From IMG/VR virus record IMGVR_UViG_3300042894_001948: DNA of 61,328 nucleotides. One strand, given 5' to 3'. A program made the position numbers and the translations under genes. Positions 4,428-48,538 of the stretch are shown here, piece by piece. Each line of letters starts with the position of its first letter. Position 1 is the first letter of the stretch. The notes under the pieces were generated by a model that was not told the DNA's origin, made no database searches, and saw only the letters and a list, made by a program, of their open reading frames with translations. Source of the DNA: a virus (Duplodnaviria; Heunggongvirae; Uroviricota; Caudoviricetes).

Positions 4428-4975
4428 TGGGAATGTTTGATTCATTTTACGTAAGAGGCGTTGAAGTACAAACAAAAGCTCTTGATAACAATTTAAGCAG
4501 TTTTCAGTTAGGTGACACTGTTCCTAACTACGAAGGTAACTTTGACGGGCCAACAGGCACTTACTACTTAATTGAAGATTCATGGCCAACTAAGGAATGG
4601 TACGGACTTATTATAATTGACAACATATTTGTTGATGCAGTTAAAGCGCAAACAGAAGAAGAAGTAAGGCGAATAACAACAACAACATTTGCAACTCTTA
4701 AAGAAAGACCAGAGTTTGTTGCACAATTACTAACTGCAATAGTTAAAACAGAACTTAATCCAAAACTTAAACTTGCAGAACTTAAATTAAAACGGATTAG
4801 ATCTATCATTTATGATTACAAACAATCACTAGATCCAGACACTGATAACCGTATACGTATGTTTAGTTCATTGCATCCTAAAATTGATGAGTTTAGAAAA
4901 GGTGCAAAATTAGAAGTATTCATTAACGAAATACTTGAAGGTAAATTTTTAAATAATAATGAGGAGGATGAATGA
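4427..4975 (+). CDS. Hypothetical protein
   Basis: 182-aa ORF in a translationally coupled operon. Confidence 0.7.
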   Translation: MGMFDSFYVRGVEVQTKALDNNLSSFQLGDTVPNYEGNFDGPTGTYYLIEDSWPTKEWYGLIIIDNIFVDAVKAQTEEEVRRITTTTFATLKERPEFVAQLLTAIVKTELNPKLKLAELKLKRIRSIIYDYKQSLDPDTDNRIRMFSSLHPKIDEFRKGAKLEVFINEILEGKFLNNNEEDE

Positions 4976-34230: not shown

Positions 34231-34319
34231 ATTAACACTTGACAAATATTATTTTTATGTTATAATATGCACAAGTTAACAATAATAAGCACATTAAATA
34301 TTTTAGTGTGTTTATTATT

Positions 34320-34666
34320 GTTGTAATTCCTTCAAAGTGACGGCATCAAACACTGGGGTTCGAAACCCCACATCTCCACCATAAAACACATTAGAGGTAT
34401 CGGAGTGGGGCAACAGCCGTAGACTTCCTGCCCCTCAAATGGGAAGTGATAGTGTGTTTTATAATGGGGATGAATTGGATTCGACTTGGTGAGATAATGG
34501 AGACGGCAACAGGTGAGGTGACTGTCCTAAACAGCGCAAAACTTATAGACGCAAAAGCATCTAAATTCGAGTATATGACAGTTGACTTCTCTTTGGAAGC
34601 AGCTGACATGGTAGCTTAAGAAACTACCGCTCTGGGGCATGTATGCCTTATTAACCAAAATACAAC
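34320..34666 (+). ncRNA. ssrA: Circularly permuted (two-piece) tmRNA
   Basis: Acceptor piece (T arm ggggttcgaaacccc, CATCTCC-ACCA ending 34381) precedes the coding piece (GGGGATG at 34466, G3:U70 pair, GGATTCGAC); tag ORF 34551-34619 AKASKFEYMTVDFSLEAADMVA; TTGACA/TATAAT promoter 34239-34266. Confidence 0.92.
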
Positions 34667-39304: not shown

Positions 39305-40405
39305 ATGCAACAAGTACACAAATCATGGCCCAGCATTAATCAGTTTAGACAAGTAGTTAGAGAAGTTAAAAGTCGTGCTACCTTTAAAGGGTTAGATGAC
39401 AATGGTGAACCAACTTTTGATCCATATGCACCTATTCCAACTTTAACGTTTGAAGGTTCAGTTAAGTCACACGGTACTAATGCTAGTGTTACTTCTATTG
39501 CCAGCAAACCAACTGGGTTTTGGGCTCAATCACGTGAACGCATTTTAACAATAGATGATGACAACTACGGTTGGGCAAAGTACACACAAGCAAATAACGG
39601 TGTGTTTACTGATCTATTAACTGCAGCACAAGATACATTAGCTAAGTTTACTATTACACATTATTCTATCTTTGGCGAATGGTGTGGTCAAGGCATTCAA
39701 AAAGGTGTAGGTATTAGCAATGTTCCTAAAATGTTTATTATCTTTGGCATTGTTGCATGGGAAGGTCCTGTTGATAACGAAGGCGAACAAACTCGCATTT
39801 ACTTTACAAAAGATCAAATTGCAGAAACTGTTGCATACGCTAAAGAGATTGTAGGGTTTAACGGTGAAGTTTGGCCAGATAACTTATACACTAAATACGA
39901 TTTCAAAACATACACAATGGATATCAACTTTAATGAACCTGAGGTTGCACAGAACATTCTTGCTGATCTTACTATTGCAGTAGAACAAGAATGTCCAATT
40001 GCTAAACAACTTGGTGCAGAAGGGGTCGGCGAGGGAATTGTGTGGCAATGTGTTACTCCGGGTTACGAACAATCACGCTTTATGTTTAAAGTTAAAGGTG
40101 AAAAACACAGTTCATCTAAAGTTAAAACACTAGCAAGTGTTGATATTGAAAAGGTTAATTCTATTAATGAGTTTGCTGATACAGTAGTTACTGAATCTAG
40201 ACTTACTCAAGGTTTAGAATACTTAAAAGTACACAACATTAGTATTGAACCTAAAAGCACTCCTGTATTCTTAAAATGGATTGCAGATGATGTTGTTAAA
40301 GAAGAAACTGATACACTTGTTGCTAGCCATCTAGAAATCAAAGATGTAATAACAAGAGTTAAATATGTTGCACGTACATGGTTTTTAGCACAGGAGGAGA
40401 TGTAA
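39305..40405 (+). CDS. RNA ligase 2-family protein
   Basis: Motif I KSHGTN, FGEWCGQGIQKG, GEGIVW, FKVKGEKH. Confidence 0.82.
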   Translation: MQQVHKSWPSINQFRQVVREVKSRATFKGLDDNGEPTFDPYAPIPTLTFEGSVKSHGTNASVTSIASKPTGFWAQSRERILTIDDDNYGWAKYTQANNGVFTDLLTAAQDTLAKFTITHYSIFGEWCGQGIQKGVGISNVPKMFIIFGIVAWEGPVDNEGEQTRIYFTKDQIAETVAYAKEIVGFNGEVWPDNLYTKYDFKTYTMDINFNEPEVAQNILADLTIAVEQECPIAKQLGAEGVGEGIVWQCVTPGYEQSRFMFKVKGEKHSSSKVKTLASVDIEKVNSINEFADTVVTESRLTQGLEYLKVHNISIEPKSTPVFLKWIADDVVKEETDTLVASHLEIKDVITRVKYVARTWFLAQEEM

Positions 40406-41050: not shown

Positions 41051-41116
41051 AAAACACTTGACAAACAATTTTATTAGTGTATAATATACACATACTAAAC
41101 AACAAAGGTACACAAC

Positions 41117-41422
41117 ATGGCAGTAACACAAGAAAACGTAATTCCTTTGCATGATCGTATTGTTGTAAGACAAGATCCTGCAGAAAGCGTAACACAGGGT
41201 GGTATTTTAATTGCACCTGTTTCAAAAGAGAAATCTGTAATTGGAACAGTACTAGCAATAGGAACAGGGAAACATATGGATAATGGTCAGTTCCGAGAAA
41301 TAAAAGTAGCAGTTGGCGACAGAGTGTTATATGGGAAACATGCTGGAGAGCCTATTAAATTGCATGATGACGAAGTTATCATTATGCGTGAAGATGAAGT
41401 ATTAGCTATCCTAAGAGATTAG
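41117..41422 (+). CDS. groES: Co-chaperonin GroES
   Basis: PLHDRIVV, TQGGILI, VGDRVLYGKHAG, IMREDEVLAI. Confidence 0.93.
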   Translation: MAVTQENVIPLHDRIVVRQDPAESVTQGGILIAPVSKEKSVIGTVLAIGTGKHMDNGQFREIKVAVGDRVLYGKHAGEPIKLHDDEVIIMREDEVLAILRD

Positions 41423-41432
41423 GAAAATAAAA

Positions 41433-41549
41433 ATAGGTTTCCTACAGCAACAATTTAATATCTCAGTGTGTCGCAGGTTCGATTCCTGCATGTTACTTGT
41501 AACATTAGCTCAGTTGGTAGAGTAATTGATCAAAATTGTGAAACCTGTT
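41433..41549 (+). ncRNA. Y-like RNA 1, permuted tRNA mimic
   Basis: ataggtttc/gaaacctgt stem, TACAGCAAC, T arm gcagg-ttcgatt-cctgc, looped acceptor atgttac/gtaacat, D arm gctc-agttggta-gagt. Confidence 0.8.
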
Positions 41550-41579
41550 AAAACTCCTTAAAAAAATTAAAAAAAAGTG

Positions 41580-41608
41580 TTGACAAGCAGTTAGTTACGT
41601 AGTACAAT
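41580..41608 (+). promoter_or_regulatory. sigma70 promoter driving the RNA array
   Basis: TTGACA-17 nt-TACAAT. Confidence 0.75.
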
Positions 41609-41613
41609 AGTTT

Positions 41614-41670
41614 TAGAATGTTAACAGCAACTTAAAATCATTTTTGAATATGACTAAAATACATTCTGTT
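41614..41670 (+). ncRNA. Y-like RNA 2 (small)
   Basis: agaatgt/acattct stem, TAACAGCAAC. Confidence 0.7.
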
Positions 41671-41681
41671 AAATAGTTTTT

Positions 41682-41760
41682 TAGGTTTCCTACAGCAGTA
41701 CTTTGCAGAAGTGCGGAAAAGATGTTCCGTACATATTTGTAACACTATGTGGAACCTGTT
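41682..41760 (+). ncRNA. Y-like RNA 3
   Basis: aggtttcc/ggaacct stem, TACAGCAGT, inner gtgcggaa/ttccgtac hairpin. Confidence 0.7.
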
Positions 41761-41770
41761 AAAAAGTTTA

Positions 41771-42007
41771 TTAAAAAGAACCCAACTACTGAAAAAACTT
41801 TTGCGAAAGCAGGCACAACGTGTTCTCCGGAAGGGGCACAGTGGGTAGTTATAGACTGCGAGTTGTAATGAGTGAGAGTTTCAGGCAATTACAGTGCTTT
41901 GATTCTAGTTACTATGGTAGTCATGTTGGCGGAACTAGTAAAGGGCGTCTGTAAAACGTTGACCGCATCAGCTCGATGAAACCAAAACTTTACGGGGTTC
42001 TTTTTAA
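41771..42007 (+). ncRNA. About 235-nt multi-stem RNA (Y-like RNA 4, divergent motif)
   Basis: 13-bp closing stem ttaaaaagaaccc/gggttctttttaa; GNRA hairpin; Tyr-like anticodon arm at 41945-41959. Confidence 0.6.
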
Positions 42008-42014
42008 TAAGTTT

Positions 42015-42142
42015 TAGAATGTTAACCGCATCATAATTTAATGGAAACTGGTGTCCTTAGGACGTGTAGGTGCAAGTCCTACAATGCAATATTGCATTTG
42101 GCGAAAGAGTAGACGCACTGGTAAATAAAATGCATTCTGATA
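42015..42142 (+). ncRNA. Y-like RNA 5, permuted tRNA-Leu mimic
   Basis: agaatgt/gcattct stem, TAACCGCATC, variable arm gtcc-ttag-gac, T arm gtagg-tgcaagt-cctac, looped acceptor aatgca/tgcatt, D arm gcg-aaagagtaga-cgc. Confidence 0.8.
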
Positions 42143-42151
42143 AACAAGTTT

Positions 42152-42214
42152 TAGGATAGTAACAGCAACAATTTACATCGGACTCTTAATCTGGCAAGTA
42201 AATTCTATCCTGTT
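42152..42214 (+). ncRNA. Y-like RNA 6 with Lys(CUU) anticodon loop
   Basis: aggatag/ctatcct stem, TAACAGCAAC, cgga-CTCTTAA-tctg. Confidence 0.75.
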
Positions 42215-42219
42215 AATTT

Positions 42220-42307
42220 TAGAATAGTAACAGCAAATTATTTAATGGTTCGATTCCATTATTGCTATCTTAGCGATAATGCTCAATGGTGAGCAAGCTA
42301 TTCTGTT
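42220..42307 (+). ncRNA. Y-like RNA 7, minimal permuted tRNA mimic
   Basis: agaatag/ctattct stem, TAACAGCAAA, T arm aatgg-ttcgatt-ccatt, acceptor attgcta/tagcgat, D arm tgctc-aatggt-gagca. Confidence 0.8.
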
Positions 42308-42311
42308 AAAG

Positions 42312-42426
42312 TTGTTATATTAAAATGTACTACAGCGTCTGATATCAACGTAAGTGTGGAGCACTGCTAGAGTCGCCCTTTAGTATACGGTTCGATTCCG
42401 TGATGTAGTACATTTTAATATAACAA
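42312..42426 (+). ncRNA. Degenerate tRNA-like element inside a 23-bp perfect inverted repeat
   Basis: ttgttatattaaaatgtactaca/tgtagtacattttaatataacaa; T arm tacgg-ttcgatt-ccgtg. Confidence 0.5.
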
Positions 42427-42438
42427 AAGGAGATTAAT

Positions 42439-42621
42439 ATGGCCGGTAAAGGTAGTAGAGCAAGACCATTAAGCGTTAGCAAATCTCAGTTTGATGATAA
42501 CTGGGATAAGATTTTTGGTAAGAAAGAAGAACCCAAAACAGAAATCATTTCAAACTCACACGGCAGTCATGCTAATAACGAAAATTTAGATAAAGGAACA
42601 CAAGATGGCGAACATCAGTAA
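42439..42621 (+). CDS. Small conserved T4-like phage protein
   Basis: GKGSRARPLSVSKSQFDDNWDKIFG; AGGAG SD. Confidence 0.7.
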   Translation: MAGKGSRARPLSVSKSQFDDNWDKIFGKKEEPKTEIISNSHGSHANNENLDKGTQDGEHQ

Positions 42622-42850: not shown

Positions 42851-42934
42851 GGAGGTCGAGCGGCATTGGCGACTGCAGTGGACTGTAAATCCATGCCCTC
42901 TGGGCACCTGGTTCGAATCCAGGGATCTCCACCA
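42851..42934 (+). tRNA. tRNA-Tyr(GUA)
   Basis: Cloverleaf, long variable arm, encoded CCA. Confidence 0.92.
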
Positions 42935-42940
42935 ATATAT

Positions 42941-43015
42941 GTCGCTATCGTCTAGTGGTTAGGACACAAGGTTTTCATCCTTGCAACCGGGGTTCAATTC
43001 CCCGTAGCGACGCCA
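42941..43015 (+). tRNA. tRNA-Glu(UUC)
   Basis: Cloverleaf, anticodon arm caagg-ttTTCat-ccttg, CCA. Confidence 0.93.
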
Positions 43016-43033
43016 AATATTATCCGAGGTAAG

Positions 43034-43558
43034 ATGATACATGATTTTGAAAGAGCGGTGTTGAACCATCTAATACACAAAAGTGTTATACCAATCGATG
43101 GTATTTTTCAAATAGAAGAATCTCATTTAACAGAATATATGTTAATGTATTCCAACTTATTTGGAAAATTAGGTAAAGGGTTAAAAACTAAAACAAATAC
43201 TAGATATGCTAGAAAGTTAGCCGGACTAACATTATTAAAATTAAATTTTGAAAGAAATGCTAAATTTACTCAATTAAAATCCGGTTTAGTATATATAATT
43301 GAAAATCCTCAATTCTTACATCATTATAAAATTGGGATGACAATAGAGCTTCAATCAAGATTAGATACATATCAGACGTATGATCCGTACCGACAATTTA
43401 AAATTGTTAAATACGAGTTTGTATTAGATCGCTCACTTACTGAGAAAAAATTGTTATCTCATCCAGATATAACAAAAGAATGCGGAGAATGGGTTAGTAA
43501 AGCTAACGCAATTGAAGTATTTGAGAAAATATGTTATTCCAAGGTAGCACAGCGGTAG
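43034..43558 (+). mobile_element. T5orf172/GIY-YIG-like putative endonuclease within the tRNA array
   Basis: LVYIIENP..HHYKIGMT...RLDTYQTYDPYR; 3' end overlaps tRNA-Asn. Confidence 0.65.
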
Positions 43559-43612
43559 TGCTTCGGATTGTTAATCCGCAGGTCGGGGGTTCGAATCCCT
43601 CCCTTGGAGCCA
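43538..43612 (+). tRNA. tRNA-Asn(GUU)
   Basis: Cloverleaf, GTT anticodon, G73, CCA. Confidence 0.92.
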
Positions 43613-43623
43613 AACAAGTTTAT

Positions 43624-43915
43624 TGGGATGTCGGCTTAGAAGCAGCCATCATTTAAAGAGTGACCCACAAACTTTGCTAAAGTGATACTTAAACTTACGG
43701 CAGTGTGAAAGCAACCTGTAAGCGTATGTAACTGCGTTAATATAGAGTCCGGCAATATGCCTTAATGGCTGTTACGAGTCTAAAGTGATTGCTATATTAA
43801 ACGGATGAGGGAGGTACACCCTAATGTTAAGGATGTTTTTCCTAATAGTTAAACTTAACATGTCCGAGAGTTAATTAGGATGTCGCAGACAGGTCTTTGG
43901 CGTAACAGCACACCA
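43624..43915 (+). ncRNA. 23S rRNA GTPase-associated-centre (H42-H44) mimic, split by a 238-nt insertion
   Basis: 43626-43661 joined to 43900-43913 gives GGATGTCGGCTTAGAAGCAGCCATCATTTAAAGAGT|GCGTAACAGCACAC, 45/50 identical to E. coli 23S 1055-1104 as recalled; no other rRNA sequence nearby. Confidence 0.85.
43662..43899 (+). mobile_element. Structured intervening sequence, possible atypical group I intron
   Basis: Follows a U and ends in G; P4/P5-like cttacgg-cag-tgt-gaaa-gca-acc-tgtaag; canonical P7 and J8/7 not found. Confidence 0.45.
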
Positions 43916-44025
43916 CTAAACAACAGAAAACTTTCTCCATCAACGAAAGTGTAGTAGTTGTCATTTTTAAATGATAGCTATTACTAAAGCACTAAATATC
44001 AAGTGTTTTAGTAATAGTTATATTT

Positions 44026-44110
44026 GCCAGGTTCGCATAGTGGCCATTGCAACGGATTTGTAATCCGTCGGGGAAACCCATCAGGAGTTCGAGTCTCCTA
44101 CCTGGCTCCA
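44026..44110 (+). tRNA. tRNA-Thr(UGU) with long variable arm
   Basis: GCCAGGT/ACCTGGC acceptor, acgga-ttTGTaa-tccgt, variable arm cgggg-aaac-cc, U73, CCA. Confidence 0.8.
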
Positions 44111-44119
44111 TATTAAATA

Positions 44120-44207
44120 GAAGAATTGGCTGAGCGGTCGAAAGCACTCCCCTGCTAAGGGAGCATACGGAAACGTATCATAAGTTCGAATCTTATATTC
44201 TTCGCCA
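44120..44207 (+). tRNA. tRNA-Ser(GCU)
   Basis: Cloverleaf, long variable arm, G73, CCA. Confidence 0.92.
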
Positions 44208-44293
44208 AACAACAAATAATTTAATTAGTAGTTGACAAATACATAAAACAATGTATAATACACGCATTAGTTAAACAAATTACAGATCATGTT

Positions 44294-44872
44294 ATGGAAC
44301 AATATAAGAATAGTGACGGCACATATACAAGTCCAAAAAACAACAGGACTTATAAAAGTTTAAAAGCATTTACTGCCCACTGGCATTATGCACATACTAC
44401 TAATCCAAACGCATTTGCTGAACGATTATATAATGTAGCATGTCAGTATTGCAATAAAGAATATGTGATTAGTAATCATAAACGACATGAAATTGCATGT
44501 TATTTAAATCCGATTAATATAAAAAAATGTTGTGTTTGTGATAAACCAATTAAGAATTACAAGTACAGTAAAGGTACGTGTTCTCATAGTTGTTCTAACA
44601 CACATTTTAAAGAACTAAGAAATAAACCAGAAAAATATACGCAATATGCAACTATTTGTTGGCACTATCATGTTAAAGAATGTATAGTATGTAAAGAATC
44701 AAATATTGTAGCAGTACATCATTATAATGAAAATCATAATGATAATACACTATCAAATTTAGTTCCATTATGTCCTACTCATCATCAATACATGCATAGT
44801 AGATTTAAAATCCAAATTCAACACATAGTTGATGAGTATGTATTAAATATGAAAATAAAGTTTAGAGAATAG
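44294..44872 (+). mobile_element. HNH endonuclease with Cys-rich Zn fingers within the tRNA array
   Basis: CIVCKE..VAVHHYNENHNDN..SNLVPLCPTHH; own promoter 44232-44259. Confidence 0.8.
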
Positions 44873-44882
44873 TGTGTTGTGT

Positions 44883-44955
44883 CAGGGTATAGCTGAGGTT
44901 GGTTTAGCACCGCGTTTGGGGCGCGGAGACGGGAGTTCGAATCTCTCTATCCTGA
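44883..44955 (+). tRNA. tRNA-Pro(UGG), no encoded CCA
   Basis: ccgcg-ttTGGgg-cgcgg; flanked by gtgttgtgt/acacaacac extension. Confidence 0.88.
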
Positions 44956-45007
44956 CACAACACATTACTAAATTTAACCCAACATAGTACGCGAATACTA
45001 TAGTTTT

Positions 45008-45059
45008 TGAATGCTAACAGCAATTATTACTTTCAATGGTGAATTTAATGCATTCAGTT
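45008..45059 (+). ncRNA. Y-like RNA 8 with Glu(UUC)-like loop
   Basis: tgaatgc/gcattca stem, TAACAGCAAT, atta-CTTTCAA-tggt. Confidence 0.7.
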
Positions 45060-45082
45060 ATATTATTTGCATACAACAGTTT

Positions 45083-45139
45083 TGGATGCTAACTGCAACT
45101 TTAAACTTTCTTTTTATGAAACTTAAAATGCATCCAGTT
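45083..45139 (+). ncRNA. Y-like RNA 9 with Lys(UUU)-like loop
   Basis: tggatgc/gcatcca stem, TAACTGCAAC, tttc-TTTTTAT-gaaa. Confidence 0.7.
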
Positions 45140-45149
45140 ATATTTTACT

Positions 45150-45224
<75 letters not shown>

Positions 45225-46534: not shown

Positions 46535-46635
46535 TGGTATAGATACTGCAACACAACTTTGGCTGGTCTGTGGTTTCACAGACAATCCTAGGACTCTTTA
46601 CCTAGTATAAAAAAAGTAAGAACTACTATACCGTT
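46535..46635 (+). ncRNA. Y-like RNA 10
   Basis: ggtatag/ctatacc stem, TACTGCAAC; hairpins gtctgtg/cacagac and ctagg/cctag. Confidence 0.7.
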
Positions 46636-46640
46636 AAAAA

Positions 46641-47031: not shown

Positions 47032-47122
47032 TTGACAAACAATTTTAATAGTGTATAATACACAGCATAAACAATAAGTTTATTAACAGCACATAATTTA
47101 ATATAAACTGAGGAGAACACAC
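47032..47122 (+). promoter_or_regulatory. Promoter plus Y-motif stem abutting the SD of the DUF2828 gene
   Basis: TTGACA/TATAAT; agtttat-TAACAGCAC...ataaact-g-AGGAG. Confidence 0.7.
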
Positions 47123-48538
47123 ATGAGTACATTTATCGAAGCAATTGCAAATCAAGAAGATCGTACTACTAACGGTATGAAAGCACGTAAATCAACTTCA
47201 TCTGCTGTAGTTGATTTGTTTTTTAAAATTGGCGCGTCACGTGGCAAAAACATCACACCTGAATTCGTTGCTGCTTATGTAGAAGATAAAGATCTTGCAT
47301 TACGTATTGCAGCTTGGGTACGCGATGTACGTGGTGGTGCAGGCGAACGCCAGTTGTTTAGAGATATTTTATTACATCTCGAAAACTCCGATCCAGATGC
47401 TGCTAAGAAACTTGCAGCTAAAGTTCCTGAACTTGGACGCTACGATGACTTACTTGTGTTCAAAACACAAAACTTAAAGGACTATGCATTTGCGTTAATT
47501 AAAGATGCATTAGAAGCGCAAAATGGACTTGCTGCTAAATGGATTCCACGTAAAGGAGATACTGCGGTACAGTTACGCAATTACTTAGGGTGGTCTCCTA
47601 AACGTTATCGCAAAACACTTGTTTCACTTACTAAAGTAGTTGAAACACAAATGTGTGCTAACCAATGGGACACTATTAACTTTAGTCATGTTCCATCTGT
47701 AGCATCTTCACGCTACAAAAAAGCATTTGCTCGTCACACTGACAAGTATGCTGAATACATTGCTAAATTAGTTAAAGGTGATGATCCAACTGTTAAAGTT
47801 AACGCAGGTGCGATCTATCCATATGAAATCGTTAAGGGTTTAAGTGGTTGGTGGTCTCAACCATCACTACTTGAAAAACAACACATTATTGCACAATGGG
47901 ACGCGTTACCTAACTATGTTGGTGATGCAAGCATTTTACCATTAGTTGATGTATCAGGTTCTATGGGCTGTCCTGCAGGTAAAAGCAAAACTGTTACATG
48001 TATGGATGTTTCATTATCTTTAGGAATATACTTAGCAGATAAAAATGCTGGTAAGTTTAAAGATACATTCTTAACATTTAGCTCTAAACCAGAGTTAGTT
48101 ACACTAAAAGGTAATGTAGTTGAGAAGTATGCGCAGATGTCAAAAAGTGATTGGCAAATGGGCACTAACTTACATGCAGCTTTTTCTAAGATTTTAGAAG
48201 TTGCAGTTAATGGTAATGTACCTGTTGAAGAAATGCCACAGATACTTTTAATATTATCTGATATGCAATTTGATGCTTGTGTAACACATGATGATTCTGC
48301 AATAAAAATGATTCGTCGTAAGTATGAAGATGCAGGATATACAGTACCACAAGTTGTATTTTGGAACTTAAACTCACATGACAATGTGCCAGTTAAGTAC
48401 AATGCAAAAGGTGCAGCATTAGTAAGTGGATTTAGTCCAAGTATTATGACAAGTGTACTTGCAGCTGATATGGATGACTTTACTCCACAAGCAATTATGT
48501 TACAAACAATTATGAATCCTAGATATGATATAGGATAA
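47123..48538 (+). CDS. DUF2828-family protein with C-terminal vWA domain (TROVE/Ro60-like)
   Basis: RTTNGM, RDVRGGAGER, GRYDDLL, AAKWIPR, MIDAS-like LVDVSGSMG, ILSDMQFD, VFWNL, LVSGFS. Confidence 0.8.
   Translation: MSTFIEAIANQEDRTTNGMKARKSTSSAVVDLFFKIGASRGKNITPEFVAAYVEDKDLALRIAAWVRDVRGGAGERQLFRDILLHLENSDPDAAKKLAAKVPELGRYDDLLVFKTQNLKDYAFALIKDALEAQNGLAAKWIPRKGDTAVQLRNYLGWSPKRYRKTLVSLTKVVETQMCANQWDTINFSHVPSVASSRYKKAFARHTDKYAEYIAKLVKGDDPTVKVNAGAIYPYEIVKGLSGWWSQPSLLEKQHIIAQWDALPNYVGDASILPLVDVSGSMGCPAGKSKTVTCMDVSLSLGIYLADKNAGKFKDTFLTFSSKPELVTLKGNVVEKYAQMSKSDWQMGTNLHAAFSKILEVAVNGNVPVEEMPQILLILSDMQFDACVTHDDSAIKMIRRKYEDAGYTVPQVVFWNLNSHDNVPVKYNAKGAALVSGFSPSIMTSVLAADMDDFTPQAIMLQTIMNPRYDIG

Follow-up and report, generated by a model that had tools for sequence, protein, structure and literature searches.

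YrlA-like permuted tRNA mimics on a conserved handle in a large lake phage and their genomic coupling to a DUF2828/DUF7788 protein

The window, that is, the whole stretch of 61,328 nucleotides (nt) analysed here (IMG/VR record IMGVR_UViG_3300042894_001948), belongs to a large lake phage and contains a row of small units, all on the + strand, between its GroES gene and its first tRNA gene. Three of these units, designated A, D and F, are YrlA-like tRNA mimics and not YrlA members, as the motif, the TROVE neighbour and the Rfam score of that family all fail; each carries a permuted tRNA-like body in a handle built of a clamp stem and two sequence words. The fold of the tRNA-like modules was shown by covariation, and so was the coupling of the handle, across phage genomes, to the DUF2828/DUF7788 protein family by co-occurrence; the family member encoded at 47123-48538 is the likely partner of the handle. 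We estimate at roughly 0.7 the probability that A, D and F are the cargo of Y-RNA-like small RNAs that partner this Ro60-like phage protein and display the tRNA elbow.

The permuted tRNA-like fold of units A, D and F

Reading of the sequence gave one order in all three units, namely T arm, closed 7-bp acceptor hairpin, 2-3 nt and D arm, with the following parts.

41436..41553, + strand: unit A, with handle, second stem, anticodon-stem equivalent, T arm, acceptor hairpin and D arm
41436-41441 / 41540-45: clamp of unit A, GGUUUC/GAAACC, with the tail UGUU
41442-49: handle word of unit A, CUACAGCA
41450-56 / 41533-39: second stem of unit A
41463-67 / 41525-29: 5-bp anticodon-stem equivalent of unit A, UCAGU/AUUGA, which runs via the second stem into the clamp
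41473-89: T arm of unit A, GCAGG UUCGAUU CCUGC
41490-505: closed acceptor hairpin of unit A, AUGUUAC/GUAACAU
41508-23: D arm of unit A, after UA, GCUC AGUUGGUA GAGU, the loop being AGUUGGUA
42017..42145, + strand: unit D, a permuted class II, tRNA-Leu-like body in the handle
42017-22 / 42132-37: clamp of unit D, GAAUGU/GCAUUC, with the tail UGAU
42023-30: handle word of unit D, UAACCGCA
42048-52 / 42117-21: anticodon-stem equivalent of unit D, CUGGU/ACUGG
42054-62: variable arm of unit D
42066-82: T arm of unit D, with the unusual loop UGCAAGU
42083-98: acceptor hairpin of unit D
42101-16: D arm of unit D, after UG, with a 3-bp stem and the 10-nt loop AAAGAGUAGA, which has no GG
42222..42311, + strand: unit F, with the clamp joined directly to T arm, acceptor hairpin and D arm
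42222-27 / 42298-303: clamp of unit F, GAAUAG/CUAUUC, with the tail UGUU
42228-35: handle word of unit F, UAACAGCA
42244-60: T arm of unit F, loop UUCGAUU
42261-77: acceptor hairpin of unit F
42281-94: D arm of unit F, with AAUGGU in the D loop

A preliminary description of this DNA had proposed three permuted tRNA mimics with the layout T arm, looped acceptor stem, D arm; all three are present within 2-4 nt of where it had put them, and the layout is backed by covariation and by the covariance model R2 (below). The motif-bearing stem that it saw in the anticodon position proved to be the handle, which stands where the anticodon loop belongs. Its element with a tRNA-Leu-type variable arm and D loop is unit D, a class II body with a variable arm, a 3-bp D stem and a Leu-like D loop, for which tRNA-Leu accounted for 15 of the 40 best-matching phage tRNAs, and its element without an anticodon stem is unit F, in which the clamp takes the place of that stem. 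Units A and F have generic class I bodies. All three units have acceptor loops of 2-4 nt without CCA and lack an anticodon loop; with neither a free CCA end nor an anticodon loop, A, D and F cannot be charged or decode.

A scan of IMG/VR with the pattern ACAGCAA-N(5-35)-GGTTCGATTCC, followed by parsing of the matches, yielded 36 distinct units with a T arm, a 7-bp closed acceptor hairpin, 2 nt and a D arm on very different phage contigs. R2 was built from 26 such modules; this phage and relatives with 66% or greater identity in the DUF2828 protein were left out. It scored unit A at 54.5 bits (expectation value (E) 7e-14), unit F at 37.3 bits (6e-9) and unit D at 28.4 bits (2e-6), exactly at the places listed above. 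The sole other strong match of R2 in the 61 kb was a junction of tRNA-Tyr and tRNA-Glu, without acceptor pairing. A second model, R1, matched the same place (42907-42965, the T arm of one gene plus the D arm of its neighbour), and this is a class of false positive at tRNA-gene junctions of which Chen et al. 2014 warned (PMC4201824). Many low-scoring matches of R1 and R2 were such junctions of neighbouring tRNA genes and were removed by requiring at least 6 of the 7 acceptor pairs.

A MAFFT alignment (A2) misplaced the acceptor strands in some rows and served only as the seed of R1. Pairs were counted on alignment A3 (150 rows), which was made with R1, is fitted to the model and leans towards structure: in its 129 distinct aligned modules, 94.8% of cells paired versus 62.4% in shuffles, all 16 pairs changed on both sides, and the covariation score was 0.733 versus 0.199 when shuffled and 0.05-0.13 with partners slid. 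Because A3 was fitted in this way, a subset was counted separately; it comprised 73 distinct modules with at least 6 of 7 acceptor pairs, carrying 65 different acceptor sequences, and with partners swapped among modules only 3.8% reached that number of pairs. The anticodon-stem equivalent of unit D is kept in relatives by two-sided change as well (ACUGG/CUGGU here, GCUAA/UUGGU in L015; L-numbers denote the other phage contigs compared). When the units were given to ARAGORN as circles with introns allowed, unit A was called a tRNA whose 'intron' is the handle, and unit F a cloverleaf whose anticodon stem is the clamp. Minimum free energy (MFE) folds reproduced the architecture of A and F and most of that of D, with thermodynamic z-scores of -1.5 (A), -1.1 (D) and -3.1 (F). 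ARAGORN, the Rfam YrlA match of unit A, R2 and the covariation are four independent lines indicating that the fold did not arise by chance.

The D and T loops were found in fixed combinations. Of 67 modules with a T loop UUCRA, 66 had GG in the D loop, and all five modules with a T loop UGCRA, unit D included, had a D loop of the AAGAGUA type (AAGAGUA/AAUAGUA) without GG (42066-42116 in the window, L012:2871-2921, L015:3079-3130, L018:1117-1166 and L076:5256-5312). The variant reaches phages as distant as L018 and L076. The UGCRA T loop carries G at the position of U55. In tRNAs the D and T loops meet through a contact of G18 with pseudouridine 55 and a G19-C56 pair; should a different pair maintain this contact, both loops would be expected to change together. 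The correlation between the loops supports the presentation of an elbow, as the preliminary description had suggested; judging from these sequences, the elbow appears to be maintained under selection, and the combination of UGCRA and AAGAGUA resembles the covariation of a tertiary contact. The elbow variant with T loop UGCRA and D loop AAGAGUA is new here.

The handle and its genomic coupling to the DUF2828/DUF7788 family

The handle consists of a covarying 6-7 bp clamp, the word WAC(N)GCA 1-3 nt past the 5' strand of the clamp, and NGNU past its 3' strand. In the window, the word takes the form (U/C)(U/A)AC(A/C/U)GCA two bases after the 5' strand, (U/A/C)G(U/A)U comes directly after the 3' strand, and the clamp sequence varies between units yet always pairs. 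Clamp, word and NGNU tail were found in A, D and F, and the handle is carried by further units.

41616-41672, + strand: unit B, handle with non-tRNA-like cargo
41684-41762, + strand: unit C, handle with non-tRNA-like cargo
42154..42216, + strand: unit E, handle with a 5-bp hairpin and the 7-nt loop CUCUUAA
45009-45061 and 45084-45141, + strand: two short handle units within the tRNA array
46537-46637: a longer handle unit

Since B and C, and likewise E and the units at 45009, 45084 and 46537, bear the same handle on non-tRNA-like cargo, the handle serves as a general frame. The loop of unit E is shaped like the anticodon loop of tRNA-Lys(CUU), which is a different part of tRNA from those that A, D and F show. 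Among 82 closed-acceptor modules, the handle surrounded 42 under strict rules and 65 under relaxed rules, the latter versus 18.8 with the downstream flanks swapped; most of the misses inspected were handle units with slightly different words, for example UCAGCA. Pairing of the handle word with the 3' tail (AAC/GUU, ACA/UGU) produced single fits, such as AUC/GAU in unit D, and no consistent covariation across units, and we therefore make no claim of a pseudoknot in the handle.

The protein to which the handle is coupled is encoded downstream of the array.

47123..48538, + strand: gene for a 471-aa protein with Pfam DUF2828 and DUF7788

Of 35 phage records selected for RNA pattern and handle, 28 encode DUF7788 (PF25043), among them all six that are at least 90% complete, versus none of 17 records (seven of them complete) in which the pattern matched an ordinary tRNA without a handle and none of 14 control genomes. 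An initial DUF7788 control set was unclean, since 15 of its 32 records had the gene; most of these, when inspected, held handle units that the strict parser had missed. The family is large: at least 8,000 metagenomic protein clusters match it, and 705 records of cultured phages hold full-length homologues; among these are Felix O1-type coliphages and mycobacteriophages, the latter with genes annotated as 'Ro-like RNA binding protein'. In Mycobacterium phage Breezona (L136), three handle units, none of them annotated, lie at 4470-4730 immediately 3' of such a gene; the middle one is a permuted tRNA-like unit and scores 21.7 bits with the Rfam YrlA model.

The AlphaFold model of the protein encoded at 47123-48538 combines a helical ring part with a vWA domain. 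Its 13 best PDB matches were all Ro60/TROVE proteins, aligned full-length with E from 2.6e-8 to 6e-5, and included the Ro60 of Thermus phage phiLo (template modelling score 0.54), Deinococcus Rsr, and Xenopus and human Ro60; the window protein is thus Ro60-like in predicted fold only. One Atlas cluster mixes the labels TROVE, DUF7788 and DUF2828. Tethering of PNPase, a feature of Ro60/Rsr-Y RNA particles, is to our knowledge not known for the DUF2828 family.

The leader of the DUF2828 gene (47077-47109) has a clamp of its own, AGUUUAU/AUAAACU, together with UAACAGCAC, and the 3' strand of this clamp abuts the ribosome-binding site GAGGAG. Such a clamp could serve feedback control by the DUF2828 protein.

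Relation to known RNAs and origin of the permuted bodies

YrlA (RF02553; PMC4201824), a tRNA-like Y RNA of bacteria and mycobacteriophages, is bound by Ro60/Rsr and carries tRNA modifications (pseudouridine, dihydrouridine). The units share with it the order of the arms, an optional variable arm, the elbow nucleotides, a terminal stem with a protein-binding site (putative in the phage units), the presence of several sister RNAs per locus and a position on the same strand as a Ro60-shaped protein. The YrlA order of T arm, closed acceptor-like stem-loop and D arm was found in A, D and F, as were elbow nucleotides, namely UUCGAUU with AGUUGGUA in A, UUCGAUU with AAUGGU in F and the variant UGCAAGU with AAAGAGUAGA in D. 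However, no GNCGAAN0-1G was found in the terminal stems of A, D and F, where CUACAGCA, UAACCGCA and UAACAGCA hold the corresponding positions; its sole match in 41400-42450 is GGCGAAAG at 42100, in the D arm of unit D. Nor is there a TROVE-domain Ro60 orthologue within 4 kb on the same strand, the neighbouring protein being 4.8-5.7 kb away and belonging to Pfam DUF2828 and DUF7788. The Rfam YrlA model gave unit A 38.9 bits (E 1.5e-6), short of its gathering score of 69 bits, and did not report D and F at E up to 10. YrlA was the best non-tRNA Rfam family for unit A and for modules of four other phages (33-50 bits). The match to YrlA put forward in the preliminary description is therefore sound for the architecture and for the closest Rfam relative, whereas membership fails on score, motif and Pfam-TROVE neighbour.

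The phage family differs from YrlA in that clamp, WAC(N)GCA and 3' NGNU replace GNCGAAN0-1G and in that the partner belongs to DUF2828/DUF7788 and not to Pfam TROVE. Unlike in YrlA, the handle is also found on non-tRNA cargo, and nearly all members have a full 7-bp acceptor stem; Chen et al. mentioned a 7-bp stem only for the M. smegmatis YrlA, among the three RNAs that they tested for RNase P cleavage, and this RNA was cleaved (PMC4201824). We found no description of the handle, of its link to DUF2828 or of the permuted tRNA cargo in Rfam or in the papers searched. The units are probably Y-RNA-type tRNA mimics with a different handle and a different Ro-like protein, an apparently undescribed branch of the bacterial tRNA-mimicking Y RNAs.

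Among Ro60/Rsr-Y RNA particles, the ring-plus-vWA fold of which provided the best structural matches of the window protein, the phiLo Ro60 with Yrl1 and Yrl2 (PMC12135203; PDB 9KOP, 9L5Y) is similar in that the protein is phage-encoded and small partner RNAs are encoded nearby. It differs in that its Yrl RNAs were found through a CGAA motif (PMC12135203) and in that its sequence similarity to the window protein is undetectable by phmmer. Another Ro60-like phage protein, gp130 of the Felix O1-type coliphage Bas63, is reported to counter the bacterial defence Ppl on its own, in T7 or from a plasmid (preprint PMC11482910). We set it beside the window protein on its published description, as a Ro60-shaped phage protein at a tRNA gene cluster, and Felix O1-type coliphages encode full-length homologues of the window protein (~35% identity). 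The PhageMaP authors guess that some of the 'tRNA genes' beside gp130 are Y RNAs; however, their preprint describes no RNA partner, handle or permuted tRNA, and gp130 acted without phage RNAs (PMC11482910).

The handle also resembles the dictyostelid Class I RNAs (RF01414; Kjellin et al. 2021, PMC7919456), which follow the same grammar: a short terminal stem that begins with a 5' G, CCUUACAGCAA immediately behind its 5' strand, a variable middle part, and UGU behind the C that ends the 3' strand. The RF01414 model gave 18 bits (E 4-5) in the window, at 41616-41668 and 41436-41547, and the best phage unit (L097:12863-12917) reached 32 bits (E 0.04), compared with a gathering score of 41.5. The known Dictyostelium binder of Class I RNAs, by contrast, is an RNA recognition motif (RRM) protein, and no tRNA-like cargo has been reported for them (PMC7919456). 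We regard this likeness of grammar as a resemblance and a lead only, in which common descent would be a hypothesis.

Two-piece transfer-messenger RNA (tmRNA) genes (RF04321) show the same permutation as the phage units, namely T arm, acceptor 3' strand, loop and acceptor 5' strand. They possess a tag reading frame and pseudoknots that are absent from A, D and F, in which the loop is 2-4 nt long, there is no CCA and the acceptor end is sealed. Other members of the phage family look more like these genes, as 8 of the 82 modules have N-CCA at the start of the acceptor loop, all in loops of at least 6 nt and with an A/U-rich spacer after the CCA; about 0.4 would be expected by chance among some two dozen long loops.

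L076:5122-5177, N-CCA module
L076:5256-5312, N-CCA module
L128:1723-1779, N-CCA module
L126:8041-8096, N-CCA module
L047:1386-1435, N-CCA module
L083:1558-1613, N-CCA module
L039:5245-5303, N-CCA module
L129:430-493, N-CCA module

Two-piece tmRNA genes and the M. smegmatis YrlA, which is cleaved, have the same loop arrangement, and its frequency here suggests that part of the family is probably cut open; by analogy with those RNAs, the N-CCA members would be opened to give a CCA end, and they may represent a younger state. The subclass with acceptor loops that start with NCCA is new here. The earlier statement that the elements lack a CCA end is accordingly true of A, D and F and not of the family as a whole.

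The preliminary description had also concluded that the different donor tRNAs imply repeated independent permutation. This is plausible, given the class I-like and class II-like bodies and the other positions of the handle; in L041, L116 and L127, for instance, it is attached in the variable region, and these units retain a closed hairpin that resembles an anticodon arm. However, the same outcome would follow if tRNA parts recombined into a permuted unit that already existed, and the data point to repeated grafting or exchange of tRNA parts without proving independent permutation events. L008, whose protein is 98% identical, has an orthologue of unit A (L008:862-979) in which the acceptor hairpin (ACUGCUC-GCAA-GAGCGGU) is altogether different, the T loop (UUCAAAU) differs too and the rest is identical; this change is a local, cassette-like replacement.

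Proposed function and alternative explanations

Y RNAs and Ro60 are conserved from bacteria to humans. By analogy with them (PMC4201824, PMC12135203), the handle would most likely dock onto the Ro60-shaped protein encoded at 47123-48538, while the cargo would fold into the L-shape of tRNA and show the elbow of D and T loops, readable by factors that recognise the elbow and the acceptor/T minihelix. The particle may then bring the Ro-like ring to readers of tRNA shape (RNase P, modification enzymes, tRNA-directed nucleases, repair enzymes) or keep these off real tRNAs. In such a particle the elbow could act as a tether to tRNA-handling enzymes, as a decoy for host nucleases directed at tRNA or as a repair platform with the nearby RNA ligase.

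Several observations weigh against this partnership. The confidence of the AlphaFold model is only moderate (mean predicted local distance difference test score (pLDDT) 71.5), and phmmer found no solved relative of the window protein among PDB sequences. The DUF2828 gene shares its strand with units A, D and F and does not adjoin them, the distance being 4.8-5.7 kb. Unit D was not called by ARAGORN as a circle with introns allowed, and the thermodynamic stability of A and D is not exceptional. Finally, by analogy with gp130, which worked alone (PMC11482910), the Ro60-like protein would be capable of at least one activity in the absence of a partner RNA from the phage; since gp130 is active without phage RNAs, the RNAs may modulate or redirect the protein and need not be required for every activity.

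If the partnership holds, this very large family joins a divergent Ro60-like protein to numerous sister RNAs, which bear different tRNA parts on one handle. It offers natural variants, namely sealed versus CCA-opened acceptor ends, two elbow types, and elbow-only versus anticodon-only cargo, and tractable phages (Felix O1-type coliphages, mycobacteriophages) in which to ask what a tRNA mimic on a Ro particle does. 'Odd tRNA-like' stretches in phage tRNA arrays should then be annotated as Y-like RNAs and not as pseudo-tRNAs. A more speculative extension, to which we attach little weight, is a modular display in which one docking handle, possibly the Class I RNA signature, is combined with interchangeable tRNA parts, namely sealed elbows in A, D and F, among them a Leu-type body whose D/T-loop contact is re-engineered, and bare anticodon-like loops in sister units; Ro60-like particles would sense, decoy or repair attacks on tRNA, and the N-CCA relatives would be cut into CCA-ended two-piece RNAs that are perhaps aminoacylated.

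A similarly doubtful proposal is that the array is a bait, with handle RNAs displaying tRNA parts that soak up or report host tRNA-directed nucleases and the Ro-like protein acting as a counter-defence hub. This proposal is a refinement of the Y-RNA-like partnership and no alternative to it. Different tRNA parts do stand on one handle, A, D and F showing elbows while E and the 45-kb units show anticodon-like loops, the array has phage tRNA genes, a tmRNA and an RNA ligase in its surroundings, and a Ro60-like phage protein has been reported to counter Ppl (preprint PMC11482910). However, Ppl is proposed to attack DNA and not tRNA, gp130 worked without phage RNAs (PMC11482910), and the elbow-only mimics have no identifiable nuclease target site.

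The other two explanations draw on the surroundings of the array. The window has sigma-70-type promoters, two group I introns and seven tRNA genes (42851-45224), and its relevant features are as follows.

34319-34619: permuted (two-piece) tmRNA, Rfam RF04321
39305-40405: RNA ligase gene
41058-41085: GroES promoter, 12/12, the presumed transcription start of unit A
41117-41422: GroES gene
41580..41608, + strand: sigma-70-type promoter upstream of units B to G, TTGACA-17-TACAAT, 11/12

Unit A sits in the 3' untranslated region of the GroES gene. We found no convincing terminator inside the array; given this and the promoters at 41058-85 and 41580-608, the units would have to be excised from longer transcripts. 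The array had no blastn match among GenBank phages. The nearest record, G001 (L001), has RNAs 99-100% identical to those of the window and is for this reason useless for covariation. On its minus strand it carries two small open reading frames (ORFs; ~230 and ~310 nt of extra DNA) exactly between the counterparts of D and E and of E and F, so that the units are discrete modules.

Transcripts of this kind could be cut at tRNA-like bodies, as in the tRNA punctuation of organelles and in mascRNA, and the bodies might be nothing but RNase P or RNase Z sites that divide long transcripts running from GroES through the array and ORFs to the tRNAs. The polycistronic context without terminators and the small ORFs exactly between the units of the near-identical G001 would suit such a role, as would the N-CCA in the acceptor loop of 8 of 82 relatives and the 7-bp acceptor stems, which are RNase P determinants, the M. 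smegmatis YrlA being cut by RNase P (PMC4201824). Nevertheless, loops of 2-4 nt seal A, D and F at the acceptor end, so that RNase P and RNase Z would find neither a leader nor a trailer, and the conserved handle, its non-tRNA cargo and the tight coupling to DUF2828 would be left unexplained; we consider this role very improbable. Least credible of all, and to be set aside almost entirely, is that the units are true permuted tRNA genes of the Cyanidioschyzon type, whose transcript would be circularised, perhaps by the phage RNA ligase (39305-40405), and reopened at the acceptor loop into a decoding tRNA: the parts do stand in the order of permuted genes for tRNA and tmRNA, and the phage does encode a permuted tmRNA, but there is neither an anticodon loop nor a bulge-helix-bulge junction, a handle of conserved sequence across cargo types stands in that place, unit F has no anticodon stem, and the acceptor loops of A, D and F lack CCA.

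Immediately 3' of unit F, at 42313-42425, a 22-bp helix closes a four-hairpin junction, the last hairpin of which is a perfect T arm (ACGG UUCGAUU CCGU). The element contains CUACAGCG, has an MFE of -42.6 kcal/mol (z -7.0) and occurs as a variant copy in L012; its appearance is that of a tRNA-like body in unpermuted order whose 'acceptor' helix is very long.

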